This document shows positions 247 to 62,397 of a stretch of DNA of 64,000 bases, piece after piece (position 1 is the stretch's first letter; the number at the start of each line of letters is the position of its first letter). A program made the translations under genes and the position numbers. The notes under the pieces were generated by a model. The model was not told where the DNA came from and made no database searches. It was given only the letters and a program-made list of their open reading frames with translations. The DNA is from a virus. Where the stretch lies: the IMG/VR virus record IMGVR_UViG_3300050016_000047, positions 1-64,000 of that record; one strand, 5' to 3'.

Positions 247-1344
247 TCAAATCGGCAACCCTATTTCGGCTGCTTTTGCTTCTTCGGCCAGACGTTCGTC
301 CGTTTTGCGGATTTCCTCGTCGGCTTCCTCGCGTAATTTAGTTTTGAGTACTTCAGTACTGTTCCGCTCTGCGGACAACACTTCCGCCGACTTTACGAAG
401 AACCTCAAAATCTGCGGACCCTGCTCGATAAAATTCTTCGCGGCGAACTTAATCGTATAGTCGTCCAGTTGTGAGTAAAACTCCCGGAACGCACGAAGTA
501 CGTTTTCACTTCCAAACTCGGCTACTAGTTGTCCTAACTGAATTTGTTGAGCCGTGTTAAACCTAACCGTGTTTCCAGACACAAAAACAATTTCATCCAA
601 GGTCGCGGTTAAGTCTGGTGTTTGAGTTTTCTGGCTAACAACGATTCCGCCGGACTGATTCAAGAAAGCTTTAATCGGCCAACGTCCAGAATATCCATTC
701 GCCGCCCAAACCTTAAACGCGGCTAAAACAGATTCTTCGCCTACTGACTTTTCTAGTTCGTGAATTTCTTTCTTCCAGAATTTCTTTTCTTCCGGAAACA
801 AACCAAATTCCATTGCACTCAATACTATTGCAGATTCTAGCGGAACGGGTTTACTAAGCTTCTTTTCTTTACTTTCTTTTATTTCTTTTACTTTACTTTC
901 TTTTATTTTGTTCGTTTCTGTTGGGGGTGTGTTCAACACCTCTTGAACACCTGTTGAACACTCGTTGAACATCTGTTCATCGTCCGTTGAACAACGGGCA
1001 ACGCCCGATAGTAGTCCGGCACGCTTCTTAGAATAGATTCCACTTTCCCAATTTTTATAATCAGCTACAATCCTCTTTTGTTCCAGTAACTTCCCTGTTT
1101 TCTTAAACATACCCCTAACCGCAGGGGAGACTTTTAACCACTCTTCAAGAGACTCACAGTTAGCCAAAAACCACAGTCTGTTATCATCGTCTGGAAGGTA
1201 GGGTTGTTCGGGTACACAATATGCTTCGTGACACAACCACATATAGGCGTTTTTCTCTTCCCGCGTCATTCGGCGGACGGATTCCTCCGTCATAAACATG
1301 TTGTGTCGCCAAGGCTGATATTGTGGTTTACTGTCATTAGACAT
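247..1344 (-). CDS. Replication initiator-like protein (YdaU/DUF1376-like N-terminal wHTH) containing the origin iterons
   Basis: The N-terminus (QYQPW...EEKNAYMWLCHEAY...LPDDDNRLWFLA) resembles phage initiator N-termini. It is followed by an iteron-encoded linker and a Lys/Glu-rich tract, as in lambda O-type initiators. Start moved to the ATG at 1344. Confidence 0.65.
   Translation of the reverse strand: MSNDSKPQYQPWRHNMFMTEESVRRMTREEKNAYMWLCHEAYCVPEQPYLPDDDNRLWFLANCESLEEWLKVSPAVRGMFKKTGKLLEQKRIVADYKNWESGIYSKKRAGLLSGVARCSTDDEQMFNECSTGVQEVLNTPPTETNKIKESKVKEIKESKEKKLSKPVPLESAIVLSAMEFGLFPEEKKFWKKEIHELEKSVGEESVLAAFKVWAANGYSGRWPIKAFLNQSGGIVVSQKTQTPDLTATLDEIVFVSGNTVRFNTAQQIQLGQLVAEFGSENVLRAFREFYSQLDDYTIKFAAKNFIEQGPQILRFFVKSAEVLSAERNSTEVLKTKLREEADEEIRKTDERLAEEAKAAEIGLPI
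861..996. repeat. Putative replication origin: six tandem 11-bp iterons (consensus GTTGAACAyct, 931-996) next to an A/T-rich tract (861-910)
   Basis: gttcaacacct, cttgaacacct, gttgaacactc, gttgaacatct, gttcatcgtcc and gttgaacaacg lie at an exact 11-bp period inside the initiator gene. Confidence 0.7.
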
Positions 1345-2569
1345 TCGTATATACCTCTGCTGGAATACAAGTTTGTTCCGCGAATTCAGACTCGTCCGTT
1401 TTGCGGACAGGTTTAATTTTACTAATCCTAACCGGAGCGTTAACACGCTTTTTAGCTAATTCTAAGTAAGGGTCTCCTTCATTATAACACACATCACAAA
1501 GGATTGCTTTTCTATTTAATGACGCGGCTACTTGTCCGGTAGTACCGGAACCGCCGAACGGATCAAGAACAGTATCGTTTTCTCTACTGGCCGCGAGTAC
1601 ACATTTTCGCGGAAGTTCTTCTGGAAAAGTAGCGAAGTGAGCACCTTTATATGGTTGAGTAGGAAAAGTCCATACATTGCGGAGATTGCGCGTTTCAGGA
1701 ACTAGATATGTCTCTGCTTTTCCGTTACCACTAGGTTTAACATTGTTTGAAACTGCTTGACCTTTTGAAAAACTCTTTTCTCCCAATATAATATTTTTAC
1801 CTGCGTTAGCAGCTACTTCGGAAACTGCGTTTTTATCCCAATAATACTGTGCGGACTTAGTAAGCATTAATATATGTTCATACGCATCTGTTGGTCTGTC
1901 TTTACAGCTTTCAGGCATAGGATTTGGTTTGTGCCAAATTATATCTGACCTAACCCACCAACCATCTTCTTGCGCGGCTATGGCGATTCTTTGCGGGATT
2001 AAACAAAGGTCTTTTGGTTTCGCAGAACCAGTGTTTTTACCTAACGAACCAAGTTCTTGCGCGACTCCGGTGGCTCCGCGATTACTCGCTTGTTTAGAAG
2101 TTAAAGTATCTGTGCTTTTAATTCCTCTGTAGTTTCCCCCACCCGCGTAACTATCCCCTATATTCCAAAACACAACTCCGTCTTTTTTGAGAACTCGGCG
2201 TATTTCACGAAGGATTTCTACTGTATGGTCTATATACATTTTAAGAGTTGGTTCTAGTCCAAACGCCCCGCGCCAAGCACCACAGACACCACAGACACCC
2301 ACAATCTTTTCATCAGACATTAGCCGACCTTTGGTATCTGGTTTGCTGAACCCGGCCAATGTACTTTTATTACTGTATCCGCCCCCCGCTGCGGCTACAC
2401 TCTTTTCATTCCAAACATGGTCACATTCCGGCGAACCGCCCCAAATACTTTCTTGTTCCCCGGAGTACTTACGAAGACCCCAGTACGGGGGGCTGGTAAC
2501 TACACATTGTATAGATTCATCGGGTATTGGAAGATTCTTAGCATTCGCGGGCAACAGAACAACACTCAT
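1337..2569 (-). CDS. DNA methyltransferase, beta class (N4-cytosine/N6-adenine)
   Basis: TSPPYW catalytic motif, HFATFP, and VLDPFGGSGTTG SAM-binding motif. Confidence 0.93.
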   Translation of the reverse strand: MSVVLLPANAKNLPIPDESIQCVVTSPPYWGLRKYSGEQESIWGGSPECDHVWNEKSVAAAGGGYSNKSTLAGFSKPDTKGRLMSDEKIVGVCGVCGAWRGAFGLEPTLKMYIDHTVEILREIRRVLKKDGVVFWNIGDSYAGGGNYRGIKSTDTLTSKQASNRGATGVAQELGSLGKNTGSAKPKDLCLIPQRIAIAAQEDGWWVRSDIIWHKPNPMPESCKDRPTDAYEHILMLTKSAQYYWDKNAVSEVAANAGKNIILGEKSFSKGQAVSNNVKPSGNGKAETYLVPETRNLRNVWTFPTQPYKGAHFATFPEELPRKCVLAASRENDTVLDPFGGSGTTGQVAASLNRKAILCDVCYNEGDPYLELAKKRVNAPVRISKIKPVRKTDESEFAEQTCIPAEVYTNV

Positions 2570-3003
2570 ATATTAACCTCTTCCCATATAATACCACACT
2601 CGTCAAGATATTGCTTTGTCCGCAAAACGGACTCGTTCCAACGAGATAAATAATCCTCTGTCATAGTCGGCCAAACGAACCGGGATATTCCCGCCTGTAA
2701 GAGTGTAACACAACAGCGATCACACGGTGCTCCGCAAGAGAAATAACACGTATACCCGTTGACTCTTTCTCTAGCAAACAATACGGCGTTTACTTCTGCG
2801 TGTAGCGTCCTAGAATATTTGCTTTCGCGGTCGGCATATAATTCTGGTTTGTCCGGCATAATTTGTGCGAAACCGTTGAAACCCATAGAGCAAATTGTAT
2901 TGTCAGGTCTTGTAATTACCGCACCAACTTTTGTCGAAGGGTCTTTCGACCACGTAGCTATGTGCTGGGCAAGCTCTATAAATCTTCGGTCCCACTTGTT
3001 CAT
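2566..3003 (-). CDS. dCMP deaminase
   Basis: WSKDPSTKVGAVI, GFNG, HAEVNA, PCDRC zinc motifs. Confidence 0.92.
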   Translation of the reverse strand: MNKWDRRFIELAQHIATWSKDPSTKVGAVITRPDNTICSMGFNGFAQIMPDKPELYADRESKYSRTLHAEVNAVLFARERVNGYTCYFSCGAPCDRCCVTLLQAGISRFVWPTMTEDYLSRWNESVLRTKQYLDECGIIWEEVNI

Positions 3004-4584: not shown

Positions 4585-5472
4585 TTATCCGGCCAGTAGT
4601 TCAGCCAATCTTCCTTCGGTAGTAGCTTCGTCCAGACGCCCCAATGTGGTTAACCACTGGGCCTTAGTAAGCGCCTTAGTGTCACTGACTCCGTTAAATC
4701 CTAGAACGTAGTGTTGTAGTTTGTCCGCGCCATCTTCAATGTTCTTCTCCGGCAGGATTACATTGATATATTGGCGAAGATGTTTAATAAAAGCTGTTTT
4801 CTCTTGTTTAGTAGGTAGTTCGTTGTTTAGTCCGCTCGCGTACGTTGCAGGCAGAGTTTCAGATTTTGTTTGTCCGCTTACGGACGGAGTGTTTGTAGTA
4901 GGAACGGGAGCCGCTGTCGTCTTAGGAAGTAGTTTTGGTTGTGAAAAGTCTTTTGGTGTGTGGACGGTTCCCTCGGATTTTTTTCCATCCTCTGCCTCCG
5001 GGTCGTCGCCAGTCGGTACAAAGAAAGCTTTCATTAGGAAGTACTTAGAACTTCCCGTCATAGCTTTGTATACGCCTTTGTCGCCCTTATCTTGGCCGGA
5101 ACCGGGTATAATACACTCTCTTGTTTCGCCAGTCTCGGCGTCTTCAAAAGTCCAGCGGACCATCAGGTTAGTAATGTCGCCAGAAGCGTTAGAAATGGTG
5201 TTTTGACTTATAATTGATGGGTATACGAAAATCTTTCGTTTGGTTAGCTCTTTACGCAAAGCATCAACAATATCCGCCTCGCGGACATAAGCATAGTTGT
5301 GAAACTTATTAAAGCCGTTCTTAGGTACGTAGCCAATTACTTCCATGATTTCGCACAGCTTAGTTACTAGTCTTTTTGTTGGTAGAGTTTGATTTTGTGC
5401 CTGCTTGAGTAAGTCCGGCTGAATATACATATTATCTGTTCGTACCGCCGCTTGTCCTGTTCCAGTTTCCAT
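4585..5472 (-). CDS. ERF-family single-strand annealing recombinase
   Basis: VPKNGFNKFHNYAYV...GSGQDKGDKGVYKAMTGSSKYFLMKAF..PTGDDPE. Confidence 0.88.
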   Translation of the reverse strand: METGTGQAAVRTDNMYIQPDLLKQAQNQTLPTKRLVTKLCEIMEVIGYVPKNGFNKFHNYAYVREADIVDALRKELTKRKIFVYPSIISQNTISNASGDITNLMVRWTFEDAETGETRECIIPGSGQDKGDKGVYKAMTGSSKYFLMKAFFVPTGDDPEAEDGKKSEGTVHTPKDFSQPKLLPKTTAAPVPTTNTPSVSGQTKSETLPATYASGLNNELPTKQEKTAFIKHLRQYINVILPEKNIEDGADKLQHYVLGFNGVSDTKALTKAQWLTTLGRLDEATTEGRLAELLAG

Positions 5473-7454: not shown

Positions 7455-9383
7455 TCATAAGTCACACTGTCCTGAACTGCAAGCTGGTTCCAAACTTCCG
7501 CTTGTATTGTCTATTGTCTCATACATTTGAAGTTTTGTCCAGTCTATTTTCGGCATATCTTTAACTCGTTGATTATATTCAACTTCTGACATTTCTGAGT
7601 ACGGAGCCTGCTTATATATATGTCCATCGTCTGAATAAGGGAGGAAACTAATCCCGCCGATTTTATCAAAGTTCCTGTATACCCACGACGCCACATCTAG
7701 CCACTCGTTTCCGCGAACATATACCGTACAGCTTGGATTGTGTTCGCACCAGTGTTCTCGGTACACTAAATAAAGGTCTAACTGTTGCAAAGCTGTGATT
7801 TCTGTCCGTATTACGGACGATTCGGCGGCCTTGACAGGGAAATAAAATACGTCTACGTTCTGTGCTGTGGATGCTCCCGGCTCACTGGGAACGCCAGAAG
7901 CCTTTAGAAGCTCACTAACAGGGTCTTTGGACGCGTTCCTAACCGCACGTAAATAGTGTCGGCTATAGCTAGGATGTATGCCGGAGCTACACCCCATAAG
8001 TTGACTCACGGTTCCGCTAGGTTTGACACAAGTAATCGCGGCGGACTGTTTAATCCCTAAATTATCCGCCCACTTCTTGTTAGTGGTTATAGCGACTTTT
8101 CTAAGAGCGTCTAAAGTTTCGGCTAGTTTGCCTCCCGGTCTGGTATCTTTTAAATCGCCGCCGACCGTAAGACGATTGTCCATAATTCCGGTAAGACTAA
8201 CTCCTAGTAGTCGCTCAGCCTCGCAGTTCTTCTTCCAGATTGGCCGCAGATACCTAAAGTCAGTTACCGTACTTTGCAGCGTTCCGATAATCGCGGCGAT
8301 TCGAACTTTACGCTTTAAACTTTCTAAATCGTCATCTTCTCTAATAACTACTTCAGAGAGATTGCAGAACTGACAACTGCGGAGTAAAATTTCTCCGCAA
8401 GGATTGGTTCCGAACTCAATGTCTTCAACGACTCTGCGTTCATTTTTTGCAGCCTGTAGTTTTGCAGCTTCTCTATTAAAGATTCCTCGTTCTCCACTTT
8501 TGGATTCATAAAGACTTGTCCACTCCTTTAAGAATATACCCATATCAGGCTTATCTGTGAATACAGCAGAATTGTTAGCAAGTTCGCGGTGCTGGTAGTC
8601 GTCCCACCACTTACCAGTCTTGGCGTCCCGCATACGGTCGTCAGATAGGTTGCTTAGACTAATCATAGCAGATCGCCGAACTCCGCCAGCTACCACCACA
8701 CTTGCAATCTTACAGAGCAAATCGTGACATTCTATACTTGTGAGTTTTCGCCCGGCGGCTTCTTTGAATAGATAAACCGTAAATCTGAATAACTCGTCCA
8801 GTGGTCCGGGTCCAGAACTTCGCCCACCAAATGTTTTAAGCACGGCTCCCGCCGGACGTAGCAAACTCAAATCCCACTTAGGAATCATGCCGCCATACAG
8901 AAGACTGATTAGTTCTTTAAATCCGCGCGCCCAGCCGATTCGACTATCTTGAATTTTTATAACTGTGTTTGATTCAAAAAATTCTTCAGCGATTACGGGC
9001 AAATGAGTAATATACTGTCGTTCCACGGAGAAACCAACTCCGGTCCCACACATAGAAATATACATCGCTTCGTCAAACGCTCGCGGATTGTCTATAGCTA
9101 AATATGCACAGTTGTATCCAGCGACGTTATCGCGGTCTAACGCGGGTCCGGCAGACCAAAACGCACGCATACTAGGCATGACTTCACCGTAGTAAATAGC
9201 ATCGTAGATTTCTTTAGATGTTTTCTCTCTTAGGTCTTTAGGTATTCGCGGCTTGAAATACTCTACATATCGAGTTACGGTTTCAGGCCAAGTCTCGCGG
9301 CGTTTTTTCTCGTTATTCCATCGGGAGTAGCGGCTAACGTAAATAAATTCTTGGTACGGCGTCATCAAAGGCTCAGTAGTCAA
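7455..9383 (-). CDS. nrdJ: Class II (adenosylcobalamin-dependent) ribonucleotide reductase
   Basis: YNC, GTGVGFS, VVAGGVRRSA, TNPCGEI, CNLSEV, TCVKPSGTVS, and the C-terminal CSSGQC cysteine pair. Confidence 0.95.
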   Translation of the reverse strand: MTTEPLMTPYQEFIYVSRYSRWNNEKKRRETWPETVTRYVEYFKPRIPKDLREKTSKEIYDAIYYGEVMPSMRAFWSAGPALDRDNVAGYNCAYLAIDNPRAFDEAMYISMCGTGVGFSVERQYITHLPVIAEEFFESNTVIKIQDSRIGWARGFKELISLLYGGMIPKWDLSLLRPAGAVLKTFGGRSSGPGPLDELFRFTVYLFKEAAGRKLTSIECHDLLCKIASVVVAGGVRRSAMISLSNLSDDRMRDAKTGKWWDDYQHRELANNSAVFTDKPDMGIFLKEWTSLYESKSGERGIFNREAAKLQAAKNERRVVEDIEFGTNPCGEILLRSCQFCNLSEVVIREDDDLESLKRKVRIAAIIGTLQSTVTDFRYLRPIWKKNCEAERLLGVSLTGIMDNRLTVGGDLKDTRPGGKLAETLDALRKVAITTNKKWADNLGIKQSAAITCVKPSGTVSQLMGCSSGIHPSYSRHYLRAVRNASKDPVSELLKASGVPSEPGASTAQNVDVFYFPVKAAESSVIRTEITALQQLDLYLVYREHWCEHNPSCTVYVRGNEWLDVASWVYRNFDKIGGISFLPYSDDGHIYKQAPYSEMSEVEYNQRVKDMPKIDWTKLQMYETIDNTSGSLEPACSSGQCDL

Positions 9384-9409
9384 TTTGTTCTTTCTGTCCG
9401 TTTTGCGGA

Positions 9410-10063
9410 CTAGTGTACCCTCGCCATAGAAACTGATTGCTTTTCCATTGGCGTAATATCATTATACAACAAAGGTATGCGGTCTTGAAAAACTTTTAAC
9501 AACGGTATCATAACGCGACGAAAATCAGGATGCGTCTCCTGCGTAGTTCGCGCCAAGAAAATCCAACGCCATGAGCGCAAATTCCCAGTCACGGCTATGG
9601 TACTGGCTAAGGCGTTAGGTAGCAGAGAGCGTGCCTCCTGCGGCCTCCAACCGTTTGTCAGCGCCCTGTCGTAAGCGTCTAAAGAAAGTGCGATGGGTGA
9701 CTCCCAATCAAAATCCGTCCACTTAGATAGCTCCGGCGCGATTACTTCTATTTCACCCTTTTTCTGGTAGTTAACAAATCGTGTACTTTCTTGTGTGAAA
9801 CTAAAAAGTCTGTGGCGAACTAATTCGTGGGTACAGCCTCTATCAATTCTAAATATTACAGTCGCAGAAGCGTGTTCCACAACTGACCAATCCCCATGTC
9901 CCATTACTACGGCTGGAATAAACTTCTGCCAAGAATCAATTGTTTGTTTATCCTCCATTCTATGACTTATTCGCGCCATACGCTCGATAAAGCGTAACTG
10001 CTCAACACCTTCTTGTGCGGTTTGCGGACGGATAAGGTCAAAACTCGGCTGAATTATGTTCAT
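9410..10063 (-). CDS. thyX: Flavin-dependent thymidylate synthase
   Basis: GHGDWSVVEH and the ThyX signature HELVRHRLFSFTQESTRFV. Confidence 0.95.
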   Translation of the reverse strand: MNIIQPSFDLIRPQTAQEGVEQLRFIERMARISHRMEDKQTIDSWQKFIPAVVMGHGDWSVVEHASATVIFRIDRGCTHELVRHRLFSFTQESTRFVNYQKKGEIEVIAPELSKWTDFDWESPIALSLDAYDRALTNGWRPQEARSLLPNALASTIAVTGNLRSWRWIFLARTTQETHPDFRRVMIPLLKVFQDRIPLLYNDITPMEKQSVSMARVH

Positions 10064-10541
10064 AGTTTTTGTCTCACTAGCGCGCTCAGTCCACCAAAAA
10101 CCCAAGCAAGACCTACAGCCAAAGTCGGGTGTGTGGGTGACAGCTTAAATAACAAAAATATAATAATACATCCAACTATAAACCAAATCGCCGTTTTCAT
10201 GCTCGTGCGCTCGTCGCAGTAATGTAAGGAGCTAGTTCCGACTGGTCTACTAAGCCGCCGTCTGTCCCGGCGTACATAATTTCCTCGTTGATTATGCGGA
10301 TTTTAGCCACTACAAACACTCGTCCAGTAGGAATGTGTACTAGAGTGTTTCCAAAGTTAAATAAGACTTCGCTGCCGCAGATTTTCATAGTCCACCTATT
10401 GTCCGCAATACGGACGTGAAAAACACCGTTCCAGCCCAAAAAAGAAACAGTATTCCGCCGGACAGAAATAACAGTATACCAAACTCTTTTATACCCTCAC
10501 CAAGTTGTTTCATTTTTCTGCCTCCAAGAACAAATTCGAGA

Positions 10542-11093
10542 CTACCTTAAGTTGCAGTCGGCCAAGTCCGTAAACTCGGCGGCTAACCATTGGACGAATA
10601 ACTGTGGTCCGCGTTCAGAAGTACCGTCTGTTTCTACGTCTTCCGGCGGGTTGTAGTGAGTAATTCCAAGCAAAGGGGCAACGTCGTAACGTCCGTTAAT
10701 TACATCTGGCGTCAGTTCTGGAAAATCAGTAATCGGTAGAAGCAACCCTTCGCTCCACTCTCCGCGCAGCTTCTTAGCTTTAATTCTGCGTCGGCGTACT
10801 GGAATGGGTCCAATCGCGTCGCCCCAAAGCCACTCAAAGGTTTTAATTTCTGGCACAACCGAATCCGGCTGCACAAAAACGGCTAAATCGCCGACTTTAA
10901 AATCTCCCTTTTTAACAATGGTTTGGTAGCCGAGCGTGCGAATAATTTCTAGTGTGTCTGCGTTTGTATGCGGCAGAATGTCCGTAATGCGGACGACGGG
11001 TACTTGGTGGTTTGCCTTGACTGGTTCGGCGGCTCCCTCGCCTACTGAACCCAGCAAACTTCCAAACACACTTGCTTGGTGTGGTGCGCTCAT
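10542..11093 (-). CDS. N-terminal OB-like domain of a DRB0094-family RNA ligase; ligase domain absent
   Basis: ILPHTNADTLE...IVKKGDFKVGDLAVFVQPDSVVP...RIKAKKLRGEWSEGLLLP...LGITHY. The ORF ends at 183 aa, before any nucleotidyltransferase motif. Confidence 0.7.
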   Translation of the reverse strand: MSAPHQASVFGSLLGSVGEGAAEPVKANHQVPVVRITDILPHTNADTLEIIRTLGYQTIVKKGDFKVGDLAVFVQPDSVVPEIKTFEWLWGDAIGPIPVRRRRIKAKKLRGEWSEGLLLPITDFPELTPDVINGRYDVAPLLGITHYNPPEDVETDGTSERGPQLFVQWLAAEFTDLADCNLR

Positions 11094-11671
11094 TGGGCCT
11101 CCGCTTTGCGGACAAGAGTTCGCCCGACTTTTTCTTGTACTAATTGAATTATAGCTTTGTTTAAATCTTTCTTTCCTTTGTATCCGTCATAGTCGCCGGT
11201 AAACTTTTGTCCCTTTTCTATAATATGCGCGAGAGATTCCCAAGTAGTGTCTTCCGGCCTCCACTGACCTTCCAAACCAAAACAGCTACAGTGGCTTCCG
11301 TTTACTTCTTTAAGTTTGCCGTCCGCGTTAGTATAAAGTACAAAACTACTTCCTTCGTAGCCCCCGTACCCATACCAAGCCGCGTGTACGATACTAGCAT
11401 TAAGTTCGTCTAGAATTTTCTGATAGTCTTTTGCTTTTGGGCCAGTGTCTCCATAGTGCTCCCCGGCGTAATTACTCGCTACGTCTTCATTGTTTTTAAA
11501 ACCTTCTATATACATGTTACTCCTTAAATTCAAAAATCCTATATAGTGATAATAGCATAACCGCCGACAAAATGCAAATAATATAAGTCGGCGTATTGCT
11601 CAAAGCCACTGTTACTGCGGCGGCCAAAGCAATTCCAAAGAATATAGCTAGTTTCGCGGTTTTAGCTTTTT

Positions 11672-12898
11672 TCATCGTCGCTCGCTTATTCCTTTCACGT
11701 TAATAATTTGTCTTAGTTCGTGTACTGGACGGGTTAGGTCTGACTGCGCGGCCATAACAGCATCAATCGGCTTGTAAGCTGACGGCGATTCGTCCACTGT
11801 TCCGGCGGATTTATCACACTCGATTCCAGCGGTAGCAGCCGCGTGTTGCGCCACAGTTATAGTTTTATTAGCTTGAGTCCGCGACATAGTTCGCCCCGCG
11901 CCGTGACTACAGCTACAGAAGCTATCGGGATTCCCTAGACCTTCCACAATATAGCTACGCGCTCCCATAGAGCCGGGAATAATTCCCATATCACCAAGTC
12001 TCGCACGAATAGCGCCTTTGCGGGTAATAAATAGCTTCTTACCAAAGTGTTTTTCTTCGTTCATATAGTTATGATGACAATGTATGGTTTCTTCTGGCGA
12101 ACAATTTAAAACACCAAGTACCGCCTTCATCATAATCTCGCGGTTAAGCCAAGCGAATCTTTGGGCTAGTTTTAAAGCATCTATATACTCGTCAAATTCC
12201 TTCTCCCCGCGCGGGATAAACGCTAATTCGCGGTCTGGAAGTACGACATGATACCTCTCACACTTCTTTTTAGCCAAGTTAGTGAAGTAGCTCCCAATAC
12301 GATTACCAAAGCCACGGCTACCTGAATGTAACACCACCCACACCCGTCGAAGTTCGTCAAGACTGACTTCAATAAAATGGTTCCCGGTCCCAAGAGTTCC
12401 AAGTTGGCGTTCTGCATTTTTACTTTTAGATTCTGGATGCTGTTCCCACAAAAACACCGCCTTACCAAATATTTCCTCGTGGTACACTCTTGCAATGTGT
12501 TCTGGCACATTGTGCCACGCCCCCCTGTCCCCTTCGCCGCCATTATTAGTTCGGCCAGCCGGGACTACTCGTTCTATTTCTGTCCGCATTACGGACGCTT
12601 TGTTAATCACATACTCCGGGTCAATATCAATTCTAACTGCCATCATACCGCATCCAATATCCACGCCAACAATTGAAGGAGGAATTGCATCTTCTAGCGC
12701 AATCACGCTACCAACAGTGCATCCGTTACCCCAGTGGCAGTCGGGCATTAGCGCCACTCCTTTTACAAACGGAAGTTTTGCTACGTTTTGTGATTGTTTA
12801 ATGGCGGCTTCTTCAAAAGGAACGCCGTGATTCCAAGCTTTTATATAACTTCCTTCTGATTCAATCATGTTAAAATTACTCACTTGGGACACTCCCAT
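11672..12898 (-). CDS. rtcB: RtcB RNA 2',3'-cyclic phosphate/5'-OH ligase
   Basis: MPDCH, VGVDIGCGM, LGTLGTGNHFIE, HSGSRG, HHNY, PGSMG, SHGAGR, AYK motifs. Confidence 0.97.
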   Translation of the reverse strand: MGVSQVSNFNMIESEGSYIKAWNHGVPFEEAAIKQSQNVAKLPFVKGVALMPDCHWGNGCTVGSVIALEDAIPPSIVGVDIGCGMMAVRIDIDPEYVINKASVMRTEIERVVPAGRTNNGGEGDRGAWHNVPEHIARVYHEEIFGKAVFLWEQHPESKSKNAERQLGTLGTGNHFIEVSLDELRRVWVVLHSGSRGFGNRIGSYFTNLAKKKCERYHVVLPDRELAFIPRGEKEFDEYIDALKLAQRFAWLNREIMMKAVLGVLNCSPEETIHCHHNYMNEEKHFGKKLFITRKGAIRARLGDMGIIPGSMGARSYIVEGLGNPDSFCSCSHGAGRTMSRTQANKTITVAQHAAATAGIECDKSAGTVDESPSAYKPIDAVMAAQSDLTRPVHELRQIINVKGISERR

Positions 12899-43967: not shown

Positions 43968-44330
43968 TAGAGGAATATATGACTGACTCACACGACGCAA
44001 AAGCAGTTCTAGGAACTAAACCAAAACACTCCAGTAAGTCCAAGGGTAAAAAAGTTCACGAAATGCATATCCGCAAAGCGGACAGCGGCGGGTATATTGC
44101 TAAGCACGATATGGAACAACCCGAAGACCCTTCGCAAGAAGGTAATCCTAGCGAAGAACACGTACTACCCGACGTTCAAAGCCTTGCTCAGCATGTCCAA
44201 GACCACATGTCCCCGGAGCCTCCTGAAGCCGCACCATCGCCAGAAGACGCCGGAGCGGGAGCTTAACTTGTTAAAAGGTATGAAACAATGTGTGTATTCT
44301 TCAGATGGACGAGAATGAGTGGGTGTTAAT

Positions 44331-50594: not shown

Positions 50595-53163
50595 ATGAGT
50601 TACTCCCCGGCTTCGATTTTGACCTCTGGCTCGCTACCGAACCTAGTTGCTATTCACTATGAACGGTCAAGCATTCCAAACTTGAAAGCTCAAACTCCTT
50701 TCATGTCAATGACGAAGCAAAAACCGTTGCCGCTGCGAAGTGGTAACCAAATCCAGTTTTATACTTATGCTCTCTTGGCTGCTAATACCAACCAAGCCGC
50801 AGAAGGTACCGTAGGAAGTCCTATCTCCGAAAGCACCACAAAAATCGTGGCGACTATCGGTCAGTACGCGGACTTCATCAACTCTTCAGACCTAGCTATG
50901 GACGTAGCGATTGACGATCCGTCGTTGCTCCAGAACCTATCAGACGAGTTGAACTACCGCCTAGCCCTAACACTAAACTCACTAGTACAGCTAACCGCTG
51001 ATAGCGCGACAGGTGTTGACGGCAGCGTAAACATCCAACTAGCAGCGGGTTCATACCTAACTGCAAATAACATCCGTACTGCGGCCCAGCAACTAGCTGG
51101 CGTGAACGCCCGTCCTCTAACTAAGGATGGCTACATGGGCGGAATCATCCATAAAATAGCAGCATAATTAGGGGTGGATGATATAAACGACGACTAATGC
51201 CCTACGTCGTTCACGATAAACTTCAAAATGTCGTGAAACTTAAATTCAGCTATATCGGTGGAACTCTCAACAGAGACAATACCGAGGGAAGATACCATTG
51301 GAACATTCATTAACAGATTTGGCGTATGCAGCAGGAATTATAGACGGTGAAGGTAGTATACTAATACTTCGCGGAGTCGGCTATAATAGAAAAGGCGAAC
51401 CATATAAAAGATACGGTTGCCGAGTATCTGTTAGCATGACAGACAAACTTGTTCCTGAATGGCTTCATAAAAATTTCGGCGGTTCTTTTTATTTTCGCCA
51501 AATGAAAGGTGCTTGGAAAGACCAGCACATTTGGATGATAACGAATAGAAACGTAAGACTGTTCATCGCGGCTATAAAGCCGTTTCTTAAGACTAAATCT
51601 AAACAAGCTGATTTAGTTTTGGAATACCTAGACCATGTTCAAGAAAATAATCCCGAATATCGGGAATTGATGGTAGGTAGAATGAAAGAATTAAATCGAA
51701 AAGGTAAACCCGTAACGACTAATACGCTGAACAATCCGCAAAACGGATTGAAGATAGAGTCTGAACTTTTGGGAGACCAAAAGAGCGACCCGATTGTGAA
51801 ATCGGCGGTAGCAACAGTTTAGCTACAGTGACTTTAAAAAGCACTTCCAAAACACCTTGGTTTTGAATGATACCTCCAGCAACGGACTAAGTGATATTCT
51901 AAAACGTAACGAGAGCACAGTCGGTAAGCTATTTGCTCCTGTTTCCAACGAGGATACCATTGAGTTCGCGGGTGTTCGGTTAACAAAAGCTGCTTAAGCC
52001 GAATTAAAATCTAACTATATCGGTGAAGACCTTGATTATTTGCAAAAAGTGCAATCAACCAAAACAACCAAGTGAAATGGATAAAGGCCGAGAAGGTCGG
52101 CCAAATCTATCTACTTGTGCAAAGTGTCGCTATAAGAAACAAGCGGACTGGAAGAGAAATCATCCCAAAGTTCGTCTTGTTAATTTTGCCAAACACCGCG
52201 CCAAAGAAAAAGGTTTAGATTGTACAATAACCCACAACGATTTTGAAATTCCAGAGTTTTGCCCTGCAACCGGCATTAAGTTGGAAATAGGAGTCGGAAA
52301 ACTACACGATGCTTCTCCAACCCTTGACAGATTTATTCCAGCGTTAGGTTATGTACCGGGAAATGTAGTTGTTATCTCGTACAAAGCCAATCGAATTAAG
52401 AACAACGGAACTGCCAAAGACTTAGAGAATGTAGCAAAGTGGATGAAGCAAGTTCAAGAAAATACCGAGGGAAGACTGTCCGCAAAACGGACGGAACCCG
52501 TAGAGGCTAATACGTTAGACAGTGCCTTTGAAAAAGATGCACTGAAGATAGAGTCCGACCTTACAGGTGACTGTAAGAGAACGTCAGTGGTGACACTGGC
52601 GGCAACGGCACATAGATTAGATGTAGTTAACTACTGGCCGTAATAACAAAGCTGTTAAGCAGACCACAACCGCTCCAACCGCAACCATCTCCAGCCAGAC
52701 ATACTACAATACGTATATCTTCGCTGACGATGCTATTTTCTCCGTGTTCTTGGGTAAGAATCCTGAGACTGGCGAGAAGAACTATAAATTAATGATACAA
52801 GAAGCGCCAATGTCGGGTTCAGTTTCCGACCCAGCAAGGCAGATTGGTGGATGGGTAAGCTATTAATTATAGTAGCTTTGCAGAGTAATCTGCATCGAAC
52901 ACAAGGCTATATCGGTGAAACACTCTTTGAGTCAATACCGAGGGAAGGCCGCGAAAGCGGAACCCGTAGAGACTACACGCCTTGCTCCTTATTTTAAGGA
53001 TGATGATATAGTCCGTTCTGCATGGCGACATGCAGAGAGTAGCAGAAATGACTACTCTCGCTATCAAGCGATAACAATTAAGAATACCCGTTATACGAAC
53101 ACCCTTAGGCCGGGATCAACAATGGTGCTTCGCCGACTGCAATCACAAACTTCCAGTTCCTAA
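50595..53163 (+). CDS. Major capsid protein (N4 gp56-like), spliced: join(50595..51152,51200..51217,51860..51980,52655..52863,53083..53163), 328 aa
   Basis: The exons total 987 nt and join in frame: ...GGIIH|PYVVHD|VLND...AGVR|F|KQTT...GGWVSY|NTRY...SSS*. Capsid motifs AAEG, QYADFINSSD, GVRF and DPARQIG are present. Confidence 0.9.
51153..51199 (+). ncRNA. 47-nt coreless group I-like mini-intron (candidate)
   Basis: The 5' exon ends in U and the element ends in G. Internal GTGGATGAT pairs with exon ATCATCCAT (terminal U.G), and the adjacent TAGGG pairs with next-exon CCCTA. Confidence 0.7.
51218..51859 (+). mobile_element. Group I intron 1 of the capsid gene (encodes a LAGLIDADG ORF)
   Basis: P1 TTCACGAT/GTCGTGAA, P10 CAAAAT/GTTTTG, P3 TTCAGC/GCTGAA, P4 TCGGT/ACCGA, P7 GACT/AGTC, terminal G. 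Confidence 0.9.
51298..51822 (+). CDS. LAGLIDADG homing endonuclease (intron-encoded)
   Basis: LAYAAGIIDGEGSI, FGG, IKPFLKTKSKQA. Confidence 0.92.
   Translation: MEHSLTDLAYAAGIIDGEGSILILRGVGYNRKGEPYKRYGCRVSVSMTDKLVPEWLHKNFGGSFYFRQMKGAWKDQHIWMITNRNVRLFIAAIKPFLKTKSKQADLVLEYLDHVQENNPEYRELMVGRMKELNRKGKPVTTNTLNNPQNGLKIESELLGDQKSDPIVKSAVATV
51981..52654 (+). mobile_element. Group I intron 2 of the capsid gene (encodes an HNH-like ORF)
   Basis: P1 TTCGGT/GCCGAA, P10 CTGCTTAA/TTAAGCAG, P3 TCTAAC/GTTAGA, core AATACCGAGGGAAG...AAGATAGAGTCCGA, terminal G. Confidence 0.9.
52023..52643 (+). CDS. HNH-like homing endonuclease (intron-encoded)
   Basis: AKHRAKEKGL...CPATG...SPTLDRFIPALGYVPGNVVVISYKANRIK. 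Confidence 0.85.
   Translation: MKTLIICKKCNQPKQPSEMDKGREGRPNLSTCAKCRYKKQADWKRNHPKVRLVNFAKHRAKEKGLDCTITHNDFEIPEFCPATGIKLEIGVGKLHDASPTLDRFIPALGYVPGNVVVISYKANRIKNNGTAKDLENVAKWMKQVQENTEGRLSAKRTEPVEANTLDSAFEKDALKIESDLTGDCKRTSVVTLAATAHRLDVVNYWP
52864..53082 (+). mobile_element. Group I intron 3 of the capsid gene (219 nt, no internal endonuclease)
   Basis: P1 AAGCTAT/GTAGCTT, P2 GCAGA-GTAA-TCTGC, P3 CAAGGC/GCCTTG, P7 GAGACT/ATAGTCC, P9 TGCATG-GCGA-CATGCA, terminal G. Confidence 0.92.
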
Positions 53164-55792: not shown

Positions 55793-55958
55793 AATTCTAC
55801 CAGAACTGGGATACGTAAAAGGCAACGTGGCTGTTATGTCGTTTAGAGCAAACTCTCTAAAACGAGACGGATATTTAAAAGAATTTAAGTTATTAGTAAG
55901 TTGGTTGGAAGAACAAGAACTTCGCAGGATTGGCTCAGCGGCGACGGCAGCAGTTTAG
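55770..55958 (+). pseudogene. C-terminal remnant of an HNH-like endonuclease
   Basis: IDRILPELGYVKGNVAVMSFRANSLK matches the intron 2 ORF motif; the N-terminal half is missing. Confidence 0.75.
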
Positions 55959-56165
55959 TCCGCAAAACGGACAGAGAATAAAAATGTCTGACGAAATGTA
56001 CGCCTTGGTAGGCACTGAAACAAAAGAAATTATCGTGGACAAGATTCCGTGCGGAAGAAGCATAACAACAGTTTATAGAGATTCTGCGGGCGACGTAGTT
56101 CGCCGCGACGTGAATATAGAAGTAGACGAAGGTATTATCATGGGTATCAAGGACGGTAAACTTTA

Positions 56166-56888: not shown

Positions 56889-56897
56889 AGGTTTAGA

Positions 56898-58973
56898 GTG
56901 GCCTACGCTTACTCGCAAAAAATAACCATAGACCACACCAAGGTCCCGAACACCGACCAAACGAATTACCCGCTGACATTCTACGGGACTTACGCGGCGT
57001 TAGCTACTGTTGCGAATGGCGGTAACGTTGTCAATACCGCCACAGTTAATGGTCTGGTTGTTCCTACAGATTTAATCTTTACATCTGATTCTGCTTTAAC
57101 AACCATACTTAGTTACGAAGTTGCATTCTATGATGCAACGACGGGTAAAATTGAAGCCCACATACTTATAGCAACTCTGTCTCACACGGCAGACACGTTA
57201 ATTTATTTGGGTGCCGGAAATGCGGCAGTTACCACATTCCAAGGCGGTTCGGTCGGCTCGGCTTGGAACAGCGGTTTTAAGTTCGTTGCCCATCTTTCTG
57301 ATGGAACAACACTGTCTGGTAAGGATTCGACTAGTAACGCAAACAACCTTTCAGGACAGGACGGATCACCGTCCGCTGTCGCCGGAAAACTTGACGGTGG
57401 CATGGCGACCAGCAGCAGCGATTTGCGAGCACCTGACGCAGCATCTCTCCAACCAACGAATATTACGGTTGAGCTGTGGGTAAACAGTTCCTCTCCCGGT
57501 TCTTACATTTTAAGCAAGTTGTATGCCGTCGGTGGTATCGCCAGCTATGCGATGTACACTAGTTTCTCTTCCACTTCCATATATTTCTACGTATCGGATG
57601 GAAGTTCTCTAACGAAATCTCCTAACGGGGGAAACGTCTGGGATGGGAACTGGCACTACGTCGTAGGAACGTGGGACGGTACAACAGCAACTATTTATGC
57701 GGATGCAACTTCGGGCGGCGGCACAGCCGGGGCCAGAACAGCAGCATACACTGCCTCAAACCTTTATCTCGGTTCTTTTGACGGCACGTCTTCCAGCCTT
57801 TATTACAACGGCAGCATGGATGAAGTGCGAATTTCAAACGTCGTCCGTTCCGCCGACTGGATTACTACCACATACAACAACCAGTCCAGTCCATCCACGT
57901 TTTATACACTTAGTTCCAATGGCGGAACTAATATAACCGTTTCTGTAACGGGTTCTAGTATGACTGGTTCTATTGGCACTGTTACTGAAACCGGAACTGC
58001 AAACGTATCTCCTTCTGGAAGCAGCCTTACTTTTTCAATCGGTACACCAACAAAAACTGGAACGGCGAACGTAACGTCAAGCGGTAACAGCCTTACCTTT
58101 TCAATCGGCACTACTACAAATACCGGAACAGCTAATGTAACTCCAATTGGCAACAGTCTTACTTTTTCCATAGGCACTCCTACTAAAACAGGAACCGCGA
58201 ATGTTTCACCAACTGGAAGTGTTATAACAGGTTCGGTTGGAACCACTACTGAAACAGGTTCGGCGAATGTATCTCCTTCCGGCTCCGCGTTAACGCTTTC
58301 TGTTGGAAACGTTACAGCTTCCAGTAATGTAAGCATATCAGTAAGCGGAAACAGCGTTACCGCAAGCATTGGAACACTGTCTATAACCGGAAACTCCTCA
58401 GTGAGTCCTTCCGGTGTAGTGATAACTAGTTCTGCCGGAACTGTAGTTGTTTCTGGTAATGCAACCGCAGTTTTAAGTGGAAACCTAATTACAGGTGCTA
58501 TAGGAACTGTTACTATTACAGGTAGCGCCACTATATCTGTAAACGGGAACGTTATAACTTGTTCTGCCGGAACCGTAACTGTAAGCACTGGCGGAAATAT
58601 AACCGTTAATGTTACCGGAAGTTCTATGTCTTTTAGCATAGGAACGCCGTCTATCTCCGGTTCAGCGAACGTGAGTACTACTGGTAGTTCTCTTGCGTTG
58701 CAGGCCGGAAACATAACCATATCCGGCAATGCAAATGTGTCCGTAAGCGGAAACCTATTAACTTCCGCATCCGGAACAGTGTTAATCGTCGGGAATGCAA
58801 ACGTATCCGTAAACGGAAACTTAATCACTTCTGGTGTTCATAGCGTATCCATAGGTGGTAACGCGATAGTACTTACCACTGGAAACGTTATCACGGCTGC
58901 TGTTGGAAATGTCAACATCATAGTACCCGGAACTCTAGTATACATAATTCGCGTAATTAATAAAAGTAACTAA
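56898..58973 (+). CDS. DUF2341-like plus LamG (concanavalin-like) domain protein with C-terminal 22-aa repeats
   Basis: ITIDHTKV, ITVELWVN, DGNWHYVVGTWDG, GSMDEVRISNVVRSADWI; repeats such as VSPSGSSLTFSIGTPTKTGTAN. Confidence 0.8.
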   Translation: MAYAYSQKITIDHTKVPNTDQTNYPLTFYGTYAALATVANGGNVVNTATVNGLVVPTDLIFTSDSALTTILSYEVAFYDATTGKIEAHILIATLSHTADTLIYLGAGNAAVTTFQGGSVGSAWNSGFKFVAHLSDGTTLSGKDSTSNANNLSGQDGSPSAVAGKLDGGMATSSSDLRAPDAASLQPTNITVELWVNSSSPGSYILSKLYAVGGIASYAMYTSFSSTSIYFYVSDGSSLTKSPNGGNVWDGNWHYVVGTWDGTTATIYADATSGGGTAGARTAAYTASNLYLGSFDGTSSSLYYNGSMDEVRISNVVRSADWITTTYNNQSSPSTFYTLSSNGGTNITVSVTGSSMTGSIGTVTETGTANVSPSGSSLTFSIGTPTKTGTANVTSSGNSLTFSIGTTTNTGTANVTPIGNSLTFSIGTPTKTGTANVSPTGSVITGSVGTTTETGSANVSPSGSALTLSVGNVTASSNVSISVSGNSVTASIGTLSITGNSSVSPSGVVITSSAGTVVVSGNATAVLSGNLITGAIGTVTITGSATISVNGNVITCSAGTVTVSTGGNITVNVTGSSMSFSIGTPSISGSANVSTTGSSLALQAGNITISGNANVSVSGNLLTSASGTVLIVGNANVSVNGNLITSGVHSVSIGGNAIVLTTGNVITAAVGNVNIIVPGTLVYIIRVINKSN

Positions 58974-59706
58974 AGTAATTAAGGAGTCTCATGTCTGTAA
59001 CAGGAACATTTCAAGGTCAAATCTTAGGTAACGACTCTACCGTTGCTCCCGGTACACCACAAGTTCCCAAAGCCGTAAACGGTCAGTACACAGGAACCGT
59101 GACTGAGTTTGCGAATGCTCTGGTGGTAGGGACTTCTCCAGTCTCTTTGGGACTGTTGGCATCGCCCGCGCAATTTGTATACATAAAAAATATCTCCACC
59201 AGCACTCAAACCATAACCGTAACTTGGACTCCTAACGGCGGCTCTACAGCAACCATATTAGTTCTTCAGCCACTAGGTTTTATATTTTTCGTAGAACCGG
59301 ATGCGGTAAAAGGTATTTCAGCTTTAACTGTTACATCTTCTGCTTCAGCAGGTAGTATTGAATACTATATCGTCGGCTAGCTATTTAAAGGATAGAAAAT
59401 GAGCACACCTCAGATTGACCATTTACCGCCGCAAAATCTTTTAGACTTAGCTAGAAATGAATCCGCCATGACTGCGGTTCGTATTCGCGCGGCTGAGTTA
59501 CTTATAGACGGTGGCTACAAACAAGCAAACCATCCAGACATAGTTGATCTTGTTTGGACAATTAAGAATAATCGCGCACAGGGTAAAGACGAAAAACTCG
59601 AACCTTCTCCCGAAAAGTTTGTTCCCGCACCTAGTCCGGAAGGCGGACTGCGAGCAAGTGTAACTACCGAAAGTCTTCTTCAAGACAGTTTTAAGTTAGA
59701 GGAATA

Positions 59707-60324: not shown

Positions 60325-60412
60325 AAAATTTTTTAAAGTTTTAAGAAATCCTCCCGCTTAACGGGGAAAAGCTTACCACGTTTTAATACGAAACAAAAAG
60401 GAATAAAAAATC

Positions 60413-61081
60413 ATGGCAAATGCAAATACATTTACTAGTTTGAGCGGTGGAACCGGAGATAACCAGATTCCATCACAAACTCTAGCGGCTACAACAGAAA
60501 CAGAATTTCAGAAGACTACTGGTACTACCACAGCGGTAGCTGTTTTAAGTATTCCTCTAGGAACCGCTATAGCAGGTTCAGCTAGTCCTCAAAATCCGAG
60601 CGTTAACGCAGCTTTGATTGGAAGCACTGGCCGTTACTATGGACTACCGACGGGAGCTAGTCGCCCTTCTCATACAGCCACGGCTTTTGAAAGTCGCCCT
60701 TTCTTGGTTCGCATAACAGGTTTGGCAACGCCCGCGTCTGATGCTGGAAACACTCTAGCTGTTATTCTATACTTGGGTACAACTAAATCCGGTACTGCTA
60801 TTGGTACTACGGCTACGGTTGCTCAAGCTACAACTACAACTGCTAAACATTTCATTATGGAAGCACAGTTGATGTGGGATAGCACTTCCCAAGCTGTAAC
60901 AGGTCAGTACTGGTTTAGTCTACCCGGAACATCTGGAACAGTTTATAGCACTTGGAAGACTTTGGCGAGCGCCGGAAGTACAATCGCTTTAACTGGATTG
61001 AACTTCTGTGCTTCAGCTACTTGGGGCAACGCTGTTGGCGGAGTCGTAGCAGTCAAAGAGTTCTCAATCAGCGAACTATAA
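60413..61081 (+). CDS. Beta-rich putative virion protein, paralog of 35207..35743
   Basis: Shares motif blocks with 35207..35743. Confidence 0.5.
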   Translation: MANANTFTSLSGGTGDNQIPSQTLAATTETEFQKTTGTTTAVAVLSIPLGTAIAGSASPQNPSVNAALIGSTGRYYGLPTGASRPSHTATAFESRPFLVRITGLATPASDAGNTLAVILYLGTTKSGTAIGTTATVAQATTTTAKHFIMEAQLMWDSTSQAVTGQYWFSLPGTSGTVYSTWKTLASAGSTIALTGLNFCASATWGNAVGGVVAVKEFSISEL

Positions 61082-62397
61082 CGAACTGTAAAAAATAGAT
61101 ACAGTGAGGAATCATGTATTCTGAACCAATCCCAGTAGAAGCAACACCTTACGATCACGATACGCAGGAGTGTTTTAGCTGTCGTAGAATACTCCTGCTT
61201 AATCGTTTTCGTAACGACACATCCACAATTAGCGGTAAAAACATCCAGTGCGAAGAATGTTTGGCGGCACCGAGACTATCCACAAGAGAACATGTTAATA
61301 GATTAGAAGAACTTAATTATAGTTCTGAAGCTACTAGGGCACAACGATGGGGTCGTGACCAACTCGATTTCATGGACTCTCGCCCGCGAGTAGGCAAAGA
61401 ACTTCACCACAGTAAGTTTCTACAAAAACTATATAACATGGTCGGGCCTAACGGAACTAAGATTTACATTACCGAAGGAAACATTCTTGGAGACCTAAGT
61501 ATATTTAAACTGCTTGGCAGAGCACCCAAGGGCGAAAGGGATTTCGAATATCTCTGCTATATGCCTACAGGAATGCTCAGTGAGTACTCTATTATTGAGT
61601 TTGATAAGCGCGACATACCAATTAAAGAAGAACGTAGAGGATACCGAACAGTTCTTCTAAGACTAATCAAGGCCAGTGTAATCACAGAAGAACAATGCAG
61701 ACAAGAGTTTGGTGAAGCGGTTGGGCCAGCAAGCATTCCTTTTAATAGAGACTTGTATCGTTGGAGAAACAGAGAAGCATCCAAGTTTTAAAAAGTTTTA
61801 AATCATCCGTTAGTGGTTTCGGATTAAACCATATCAGGAGAATATATGACAAAAGAACTACTAGGAAACGAAGAAGAAGTAAAAACAAAGTCTGACAAGT
61901 CCGCCAAAGTGGAAATGACTATTGGCGACCTTGAAAAAATAGTTGGACAAATTAAAGACCAATCCGACGATAAGATGCAGAGTCTTGCCAAGATGATTGC
62001 AGACGCTCTTATCGAATCTAAGAAACCGTATGTCAGTCCGCAGCAACTAGAGAACGAAGAAACAATGCGTAAGAGTATGCGGGAGCAGCGCAAGCGTCTA
62101 GAGGAAGACCTAGAAGCTAGCAAAGCTACGTGCCCTCACATGCAGGGTAGTAACGCTCTAAGCGACGTTTCCGGACCTATGACAGCTATTGTTCAGCATC
62201 GTTTGGATACCGGCGAGGTTATTGGAATCTGTACAAACTGTATTCGCGTGTTCCGCCAAAACGACCCAGATTACCTAGAATGGATGCGTAAGAAATCAGG
62301 AAACAAAATGTCTTCTGCTGGTATTCGTATGTTCATGCGTCCAGCCGAAGTCATGGCCGCACGGTAAACTCGTCCGCAAAACGGACAAGCAGGTTAG

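Follow-up and report, generated by a model that had tools for sequence, protein, structure and literature searches.

Why does a phage carry one 15-bp palindrome in dozens of places, most of them within its genes? The question is raised by the first 64 kb (hereafter the window) of a 96,442-bp IMG/VR phage genome, record IMGVR_UViG_3300050016_000047 (G000 in comparisons between genomes), in which the word GTCCG-N5-CGGAC recurs. The original prediction, made from the letters of this stretch, spoke of at least 21 perfect and 9 near-perfect copies, which proved to be an undercount. The window contains 22 perfect copies, where 100 dinucleotide shuffles gave 0.06 on average and never more than 1, and 15 more with one mismatch, making 37 sites with at most one mismatch where 1.25 are expected. 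Over the whole 96.4-kb genome, 28 copies are perfect and 50 carry at most one mismatch. A codon-preserving shuffle, which had been proposed as a check, was run by permuting synonymous codons within each gene so that proteins and per-gene codon usage were kept (300 shuffles). This left 4.8 perfect sites, four of them being immovable non-coding copies, and 13.0 (maximum 21) when up to one mismatch is allowed. The enrichment thus outlasts synonymous-codon shuffling, and the word is written into genes against codon-level expectation.

From the patterns in this genome and in those of its relatives, we consider it fairly probable that the palindromes are lineage-wide, co-diversifying docking sites on duplex DNA for a dimeric sequence-specific protein. 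The protein would bind double-stranded DNA as a dimer, each subunit reading one half-site, (Y)RTCC(G/A)(N), with the two halves flanking an A/T centre of 2-3 bp. It would belong to the phage lineage, and the sites would have diverged with it into dialects. New sites would be born by point substitution where the encoded protein tolerates it, at gene ends, in linkers and at intergenic junctions. Selection would keep them numerous and spread, about one per 2-3 kb, so that the phage chromosome is marked and that of the host is not.

Symmetrised over both strands, the full word reads YY-GTCCG-Y-WWW-R-CGGAC-RR and gives a 19-bp symmetric logo; an example duplex is GTCCGCAAAACGGAC. The spacer constraint noticed earlier is therefore real, and the word is even longer than was claimed. 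Of 56 half-views, 55 have A or T at the three central bases and 52 have a pyrimidine at position 6. Centre to centre, the half-sites lie about one helical turn apart. Sites occur in both orientations relative to transcription.

Soil and peat metagenomes contain many terminase homologues of G000 on contigs of 90-100 kb, and two homologues are located in Acidobacteria metagenome-assembled genomes (MAGs). The nearest cultured phage, Tunturiibacter phage Tunturi_3 (97.6 kb, 30% TerL identity), has an acidobacterial host; the Tunturiibacter and Granulicella hosts of Tunturi phages can be cultivated. The host of G000 probably belongs to the Acidobacteria as well. In a search of sequencing runs, G000 turned up only in a peat metagenome, its probable source. 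No DNA match of G000 was found in the phage collection. The terminase relatives in IMG/VR came from an alignment query, a single-protein terminase query having matched none, and an exact 15-mer scan of IMG/VR returned single chance matches only; the spacers of relatives are different. Fourteen related IMG/VR genomes or large fragments were each searched de novo for over-represented palindromes.

Dialects of their own are found in relatives as distant as 36% TerL identity. G006 and G012 use GTCCGG-WWW-CCGGAC (19 GTCC-N7-GGAC), and G010 uses GTCCGG-WW-CCGGAC, with a spacer one base shorter (23 sites). The word is WTCCG-N5-CGGAW in G009 (22), GTCCA-N5-TGGAC in G013 (19 in 48 kb), GTCCAT-WWW-ATGGAC in G015 (60) and a set of GTCCR forms in G021 (24). 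G020 carries mostly one exact asymmetric 15-mer, GTCCAGATAATGGAC (40 sites), which is also the word of G022 (24). GTCCG-N5-CGGAC itself occurs at low density in G007/G019 and in G008 (5-7 copies against 0.1-0.2 expected). No array (0 sites) was seen in G018, where a search for another dialect found none, or in Tunturi_3, where the de novo search gave no iterated palindrome. Both deep clades of the terminase tree contain the array, which is thin in one clade, and not even the terminase sisters G000 and G013 have the fifth base in common. As controls, 63 random IMG/VR viral loci were scored; five exceeded 15 and the highest reached 25.0. Scores of 40-105 are obtained for whole motif-rich genomes, and the 20-kb loci of relatives overlap the control range.

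In G020 and G022 (L185-L191) the dominant GTCCAGATAATGGAC is made of unequal half-sites, GTCCAG and GTCCAT, and position 6 is complementary in only 1 of the 40 G020 sites, against 15.3 expected. Non-complementarity at this position, far above chance across dialects, suggests either an avoidance of longer perfect palindromes or an intrinsic asymmetry of binding.

A palindrome can also act as a folded single strand, and the original prediction had left room for a hairpin on single-stranded DNA (ssDNA) or RNA. Hairpins or cruciforms might serve in mRNA processing or stability at gene ends, in priming by a T7 gp4-like primase (the GTC core is on both strands), or as attC- or REP-like signals. Every site can fold (as ssDNA including 2-nt flanks, at a predicted -5.6 to -7.6 kcal/mol), sites are enriched directly after stop codons, and a primase-helicase is present lineage-wide. 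The 2-3 kb spacing resembles Okazaki fragment length, and the conserved outward-facing YYGTC has what we take to be a resemblance to T7 primase sites. The sites themselves speak against it. No compensatory changes keeping the stem paired were found, and complementarity at the variable positions is at or below chance. The fifth base of G015, A or G, is chosen independently in each half (35 paired sites against 38.6 expected), and hetero half-sites of the type GTCCA...CGGAC occur at chance frequency. With eight genomes pooled, the bases next to the arms are complementary less often than expected, at position 6 in 76 sites (110.7 expected) and at flank position -1 in 61 (81.9 expected). On the sense strand, variants with the outer G changed to A would give A.C seven times and G.U six times. 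A fixed orientation relative to the transcript was not seen either, and even the polar G020 word, counted in its plus-strand arm, is unbiased (8:9 relative to transcription). In addition, the G010 dialect would leave a centre of 2 nt only, GTC would sit buried in the stem, and G018 has a primase and no sites. Independent half-sites and below-chance complementarity of their neighbours favour a dimeric protein on duplex DNA over a hairpin; the folded signal is disfavoured, and we hold it to be quite improbable. Independent halves, an A/T centre and helical-turn spacing are what would be expected of a dimeric helix-turn-helix (HTH) protein on duplex DNA. Together with the symmetric YY/RR flanks, the lack of strand or orientation dependence and the co-diversification, they support the dimeric DNA-binding protein that had been predicted.

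How, then, did the copies come to lie where they are? Coding sites fall in all frames, 21 in frame 0, 11 in frame 1 and 13 in frame 2. The shared VR(K/N/I/F)(T/A)D peptides pointed out earlier are real for the frame-0 copies, and the same-frame preference proposed with them is modest. Although the majority of sites are intragenic, they lie close to gene boundaries, at a median distance of 61 nt in G000 against 176 nt for random positions, and the same closeness is seen in G006, G010 and G015. Pooling 259 sites from nine genomes shows a 3-fold enrichment of site centres in the interval 0-30 nt past stop codons. The sites also avoid each other: the minimum gap is above random in G000 (P 0.025) and G015 (P<0.001), and no iteron-like cluster was found. 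Counting sites with at most one mismatch, the early arm of the window has one per 1.2 kb and the virion arm one per 2.9 kb, an approximately 2.4-fold difference in the direction first reported.

In alignments with orthologues, the sites occupy ordinary, variable residues. The polymerase peptides VRNTD and IRNTD, for example, correspond to VDQNS and LIDPQ, and site positions are not common to G000 and its closest relative. This alignment to ordinary orthologue residues indicates that the copies arose by substitution and not by insertion, in which they differ from RPE- or MITE-like in-frame mini-insertions.

Such a word could in principle be a by-product, left by a mobile mini-element, by a mutational bias linked to repair or methylation (HIP1- or VSP-like), or as the target of the phage DNA methyltransferase. 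Known repair biases give few-fold enrichment only, compared with more than 400-fold here for at least 10 specified bases. An N6_N4 methyltransferase gene does adjoin one site, and iterated palindromes such as HIP1 occur in cyanobacterial coding DNA (PMC5861425). The methyltransferase is specific to G000, with a homologue only in G015 (E 2e-06), whereas the motif is lineage-wide, which makes the methyltransferase target mentioned in the original prediction unlikely. The copies are substitutions, no element ends were seen in their flanks, and genomes of the host type are not enriched. We regard a by-product of any of these kinds as very improbable, and the insertion, host-word and methyltransferase readings are all disfavoured.

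The uptake sequences DUS and USS, together with HIP1, are likewise short words of high density in coding DNA, found in all frames, born by substitution and diversified into lineage dialects; DUS and USS are not palindromes. These words mark cellular chromosomes, whereas the G000 word marks the phage and not candidate host genomes. The check in candidate hosts was made on two Acidobacteria MAGs, which gave 16 and 4 matches to the pattern against 13 and 15 for the reversed control. There is no enrichment, and the result has limited weight because the actual host may be another. With the looser pattern GTCC-NN-WWW-NN-GGAC, 6 of the 18 matches in MAG G016 lie on one contig, C120, which, to judge by its size of ~50.7 kb, appears to be the terminase-bearing phage contig.

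A binder supplied by the host, such as a conserved acidobacterial nucleoid-associated protein or global regulator recruited by the phage, would explain why the GTCC-N6/7-GGAC core has changed so much less than the early genes, which evolve fast, and why no convincing phage regulator was identified; the dialects would then reflect different hosts. Motif-poor relatives do tend to a higher G+C content (52-59%), which may indicate other hosts. Against this, G021 is motif-rich at 60% G+C, G000 and its TerL sister G013 differ in the fifth base, and the two MAGs show no enrichment over the reversed pattern, this last being a weak test as the actual host may differ. Recruitment of a host protein seems to us improbable.

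Dispersed dyad repeats within phage genes have been known since the Cluster O mycobacteriophages, and their repeat is the closest described case, analogous to the present one and not homologous. We know of no function assigned to any such repeats, and a literature search for a described function of such an array found nothing specific. The Cluster O phages (Corndog) carry 34 copies of the 17-bp repeat TGTTCGG-NNN-CCGAACA, in the majority of which NNN is TTT or AAA (Cresawn et al. 2015, PMC4351075). About one third of the copies lie within genes, there is no orientation preference and the early arm is denser; the authors predicted a dimeric binder and assigned no function (PMC4351075). Both phages thus have more than 30 copies per genome, with invariant inverted arms, a 3-bp A/T centre and no orientation preference. 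In both, copies are found genome-wide, between genes, near 5' ends and inside genes, with a denser early arm. The two differ in the word and are unrelated phages by terminase and host phylum, the terminase relatives of G000 being of Acidobacteria type. They also differ in that the G000 copies are mostly intragenic, that G000 has an integrase and Cluster O none, and that a series of dialects over distant relatives, including a change of spacer length and an asymmetric form, is documented for the G000 lineage.

The original prediction had drawn its analogy with the stoperators of mycobacteriophage L5. In an immunity system of this type, an unrecognised phage repressor would bind all sites in lysogens and block prophage transcription, and the dialects would be immunity specificities. 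Cluster A stoperators (L5, Bxb1) are, like the G000 sites, dozens of dispersed copies of a short site, many near gene boundaries, and their motif varies among relatives with genome distance (PMC6550527), which the dialects parallel. The dispersal of the sites described here, their location at gene junctions and their higher density in the early arm would fit as well. Of the motif-rich genomes, four are at least 90% complete (G000, G006, G010 and G015), and all four encode a tyrosine integrase; the low-density G007 and G008 have none. Stoperators, in contrast, are asymmetric, bound by a monomeric repressor and placed mostly in one direction relative to transcription (PMC6550527, PMC9283540), whereas the G000 arms are symmetric and their orientation is random. 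No repressor of CI, Cro, Xre or S24 type was found among ~150 open reading frames (ORFs) with Pfam and PHROGs, the alignment-mode scans covering the top 25 families. At 36% TerL identity the GTCC core is still conserved, a stability that would be unusual in an immunity determinant. No sites were seen in G018, which has an integrase, and no integrase was found in G009, which has sites. The analogy fails two defining features, asymmetry of the site and a single orientation; as a functional possibility, stoperator-type immunity is in our estimation rather unlikely.

A second family of known systems resembles G000 in the geometry of the site. Noc with its NBS sites, ParB with parS and KorB with its OB operators use palindromes that are read by a dimer of HTH domains, and Noc sites, like those of KorB, are dispersed and act at a distance. 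These palindromes are 13-16 bp long, as compared with the 15-bp dyad with independent half-sites in G000. On plasmid RK2, the ParB-family protein KorB is loaded at dispersed OB palindromes and silences at a distance, for which its CTPase is needed (PMC11790492). With 28-60 sites per 100 kb, the arrays of the G000 lineage are much denser than OB or parS.

Which protein might bind? The Pfam and PHROGs scans of the ~150 ORFs (for alignment-mode scans, among the top 25 families listed) returned no ParB or other classical regulator either. We tentatively propose, as a possibility well short of an even chance, that the binder is a ParB-fold dimer formed by a 220-aa early protein encoded outside the window (genome 92509-93171, minus strand). 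It is the one uncharacterised early protein found in every relative that holds the early region. Its AF2 model has a pLDDT of 84. In a second-look comparison, the 13 best matches of the model were all DNA-binding domains of ParB, Spo0J, Noc or KorB (Z 5.7-8.3 over 97-128 residues). When compared without bias with 48,161 chains, the model matched Spo0J first (Z 7.8, 109 residues), and the three rows of this search with more than 100 aligned residues were two ParB-type domains and the N-terminal domain of Raf1. The predicted homodimer scored 0.75, against 0.00 for the best control, a mark reached by 20 of 30 proteins solved as pairs and by 1 of 23 solved as single chains. The homodimer runs had at least 88% of contacts in common and a pLDDT of at least 81. 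In the predicted dimer the interface is made by the N- and C-terminal helices, and residues 80-150, the HTH region, are left free.

The putative recognition helix of the 220-aa protein, at residues 107-121 in G000, reads G-I-T/S-K/N-A-x-x-L. The eight loci with a KAHELRR helix all have dense GTCC-type arrays, seven of them with a TCCA half-site consensus, and TCCG dialects have I, T, S or N at the position of its His.

The candidate would thus be a homodimer with an HTH domain of ParB/Spo0J/Noc/KorB type, these domains being its best structural matches; unlike those families, it has no N-terminal CTPase domain (ParB/Srx) and no family match at the sequence level. Residue 9 of the model aligns to residue 98 of Spo0J onward, which leaves no room for that domain, and there is no ParBc match in Pfam. 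Without it, the protein cannot be a CTP-gated sliding clamp and is not a mechanistic member of the ParB/KorB family. Among the Pfam families listed no ParA partner was found, and the neighbouring ATPase is AAA+/clamp-loader-like. The parS-like organising site that had been suggested at the outset has thereby gained a tentative candidate protein, which lacks the CTPase part of the analogy.

Several observations weigh against this candidate, or against the broader proposal of a phage-encoded dimer. A Z of about 8 is within the range that the comparison tool flags as possibly generic for helical proteins. The Foldseek E-values of the model are weak, the protein has no Pfam family, a PDB profile search gave only unrelated proteins at E>=0.096, and the protein atlas gave leads below 0.9 only. 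The association of His with a TCCA half-site is largely that of one clade, and its exceptions, L209 (Ser) and G021 (Gly), are both TCCA. The protein is also encoded in the site-free or site-poor G018, L216, G007/G019 and G008, so that its presence does not predict the array. In most relatives its gene lies between sliding-clamp and clamp-loader genes, and from this neighbourhood it could be a part of the replisome. As to the sites, the GTCC core is kept over very deep phage divergence, which a slowly evolving host protein would fit too, and the dominant G020 15-mer is asymmetric inside its arms, which a plain symmetric homodimer does not explain.

In the region around the 220-aa gene (genome 90649-93171, L184:8649-11171), the gene stands directly after one for a beta-sliding-clamp-like protein in most relatives (G010, G015, G020, G008). 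Next after it in G000 come an HNH gene and the genes of an AAA+ clamp-loader-like ATPase and of a sigma-factor-like 190-aa protein (PHROG 351, E 3.6e-5). The clamp, loader and sigma-like arrangement recalls the clamp, loader and late-sigma set of T4.

Other candidates were set aside. The putative replication initiator (window 247-1446, minus strand; DUF1376/primosomal-like) has N-terminal domains that are non-homologous among genomes sharing the GTCC core, and the sites show no iteron-like clustering. Its gene carries three motif copies itself. Its C-terminal half is conserved, and the at least three unrelated types of N-terminal domain among relatives amount to a swap of the presumed origin-binding domain. 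An integrase acting on so many identical sites would scramble the genome, and its presence tracks the array only loosely. Candidates from phylogenetic profiling (the GNAT-like 149-aa tail-module protein, an FmdB-type zinc ribbon and the sigma-like 190-aa protein) were not DNA-site-like or were also present in the site-free G018. The 56-aa HTH ORF (20093-20263), put forward originally as a binder, gave weak HTH matches only, and jackhmmer found no homologue in relatives.

The sites of the window are given here by coordinate, strand not assigned. From its left end, perfect copies lie at the methyltransferase/initiator gene junction (1394..1408, GTCCGTTTTGCGGAC), at the 3' end of the dCMP deaminase gene (2618..2632), within the ribonucleotide reductase (RNR) gene (7804..7818) and in the intergenic DNA 12 nt upstream of the RNR start (9396..9410). 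They continue near the 5' end of an 80-aa ORF (10401..10415, VRIAD), at 10980..10994 (VRITD, where orthologues have VKIDN or VRIPE, indicating substitution and not insertion), within RtcB in frame 2 (12582..12596), at the 3' end of the tyrosine integrase gene (15135..15149, VRNAD) and in the family A DNA polymerase gene (18144..18158, the VRNTD aligned to VDQNS). Then come copies in a 94-aa zinc-ribbon-like ORF in frame 1 (20744..20758), a small early ORF (21195..21209), a 93-aa ORF (23424..23438, VRFAD) and near the 5' end of a 95-aa ORF (23891..23905, VRNTD). One is intergenic, 15 nt upstream of the start of a 60-aa ORF (29302..29316), and one lies in the divergent region separating the two arms (31791..31805). 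Further on are copies near the start of a 70-aa ORF (32943..32957, VRKTD), in intergenic DNA (35129..35143), in a scaffold-like gene, where orthologues have a variable linker (49818..49832, VRIAD), in capsid-gene group I intron 2 and its HNH ORF (52478..52492), at a gene junction (55958..55972) and in the intergenic DNA 11 nt upstream of the adaptor gene start (62372..62386). The copy at 59634..59648, with perfect arms and an atypical GAAGG spacer, is the weakest member and possibly due to chance.

One-mismatch copies are found twice in the initiator gene, at 298..312 (outer G to A) and 362..376, then at 10015..10029, at a gene junction (11099..11113) and at 16505..16519 (outer base). The polymerase gene has two more, at 19020..19034 (VRNAD) and 19899..19913 (the IRNTD aligned to LIDPQ). 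Others are in the phosphatase-domain gene (25010..25024), the 917-aa gene (27462..27476, IRNAD), the AAA_5 ATPase gene (31303..31317) and a 95-aa ORF upstream of the terminase (44069..44083, IRKAD). Those at 5272..5286, with a G/C-rich spacer, and at 13541..13555 are doubtful. Two with an inner mismatch, 38908..38922 (atypical spacer) and 57843..57857 (G/C spacer), are probably chance occurrences, the former set against the 1.25 expected by chance.

Two copies had been placed in capsid introns, at 51734 and 52478, and both do lie inside Rfam group I intron matches. The first, in intron 1 (51734..51748, ATCCGCAAAACGGAT), has two mismatches and the core TCCG-N5-CGGA. The major capsid gene (window 50595-53163) is broken by three such matches, 51649-51783, 52335-52577 and 52854-53035, the last above the gathering score. 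Two of the introns hold endonuclease ORFs, a PHROG HNH at 51298-51822 and an endonuclease VII/HNH at 52023-52643. A free-standing Endonuclease_7/HNH family, probably of homing endonucleases, is present in 4-5 copies in G000 and 2-5 in relatives (window 22199-22864, plus strand; genome 64184-64789, 75785-76342, 83842-84297 and 87089-87766). One G000 copy is on the opposite strand inside the early arm, and two of the paralogues terminate in motif-encoded ESAKR(T/M).

As a whole, the G000 genome is laid out in two divergent arms. The early arm encodes the methyltransferase, a class II RNR, RtcB, the tyrosine integrase, PolA and the AAA_5 ATPase, and past the window RecA and a T7 gp4-like primase-helicase, among others. 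Terminase, portal and the capsid gene with its group I introns belong to the virion arm. The early arm begins (window 29378-31536, minus strand) with an AAA_5 ATPase of MoxR/McrB type, which has a 190-aa N-terminal extension of no assigned fold, and then a DUF7192 protein; no homologues of either were found in the sampled relatives. At 24060-28328 (minus strand) lie a 917-aa protein with no Pfam match and a 504-aa protein that combines a dual-specificity phosphatase domain with a zinc ribbon, a gene pair common only to G000 and G006. One of the seven phage tRNAs is a tRNA-Ile with anticodon TAT (99 nt, window 7179-7277, minus strand; ARAGORN). An RNA-repair set adjoins the tRNA genes (window 11672-12898, minus strand, and neighbours) and comprises the RtcB ligase, a cREC_REC cyclic-phosphate-processing receiver domain and an RNA ligase-like protein. 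The 149-aa tail-module gene (genome 74299-74748, L183:10299-10748, plus strand) is conserved and was missed by simple ORF picking. It occupies the position of the Tunturi_3 gene annotated as acetyltransferase gp22. Every motif-rich relative has it, as does G018, and G007, G008, G014 and G019 lack it.

What would binding of a dimeric protein at these sites do for the phage? Our working inference is that the array would be used like those of Noc and KorB or like the Cluster O repeats, as orientation-independent anchors or roadblocks. Placed mainly at gene junctions and more densely in the early arm, they would control or organise the whole phage genome. A bolder idea, which we put forward as a long shot, is that the array and a CTPase-less dimer of ParB fold form a genome-identity system of an undescribed kind, whose dialect tags the phage's own chromosome every few genes and which works with the adjacent clamp, clamp-loader and sigma-like module. 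The sites would then be loading or anchoring points that license replication-coupled late transcription or a selective handling of 'self' DNA, and co-infecting relatives with another dialect would be excluded.

The lineage provides a test bed for these ideas. It offers graded natural dialects, with a base change, a change of spacer length and a broken dyad, as well as low-density and site-free relatives that include a cultured acidobacterial phage, and one concrete candidate protein. Should the sites be dispensable, this would be an equally useful negative for a recurring puzzle. If the protein-site pair is true, the phage would overlay a second genome-wide code on its protein-coding sequence, and the lineage would be a source of orthogonal DNA-binding modules.

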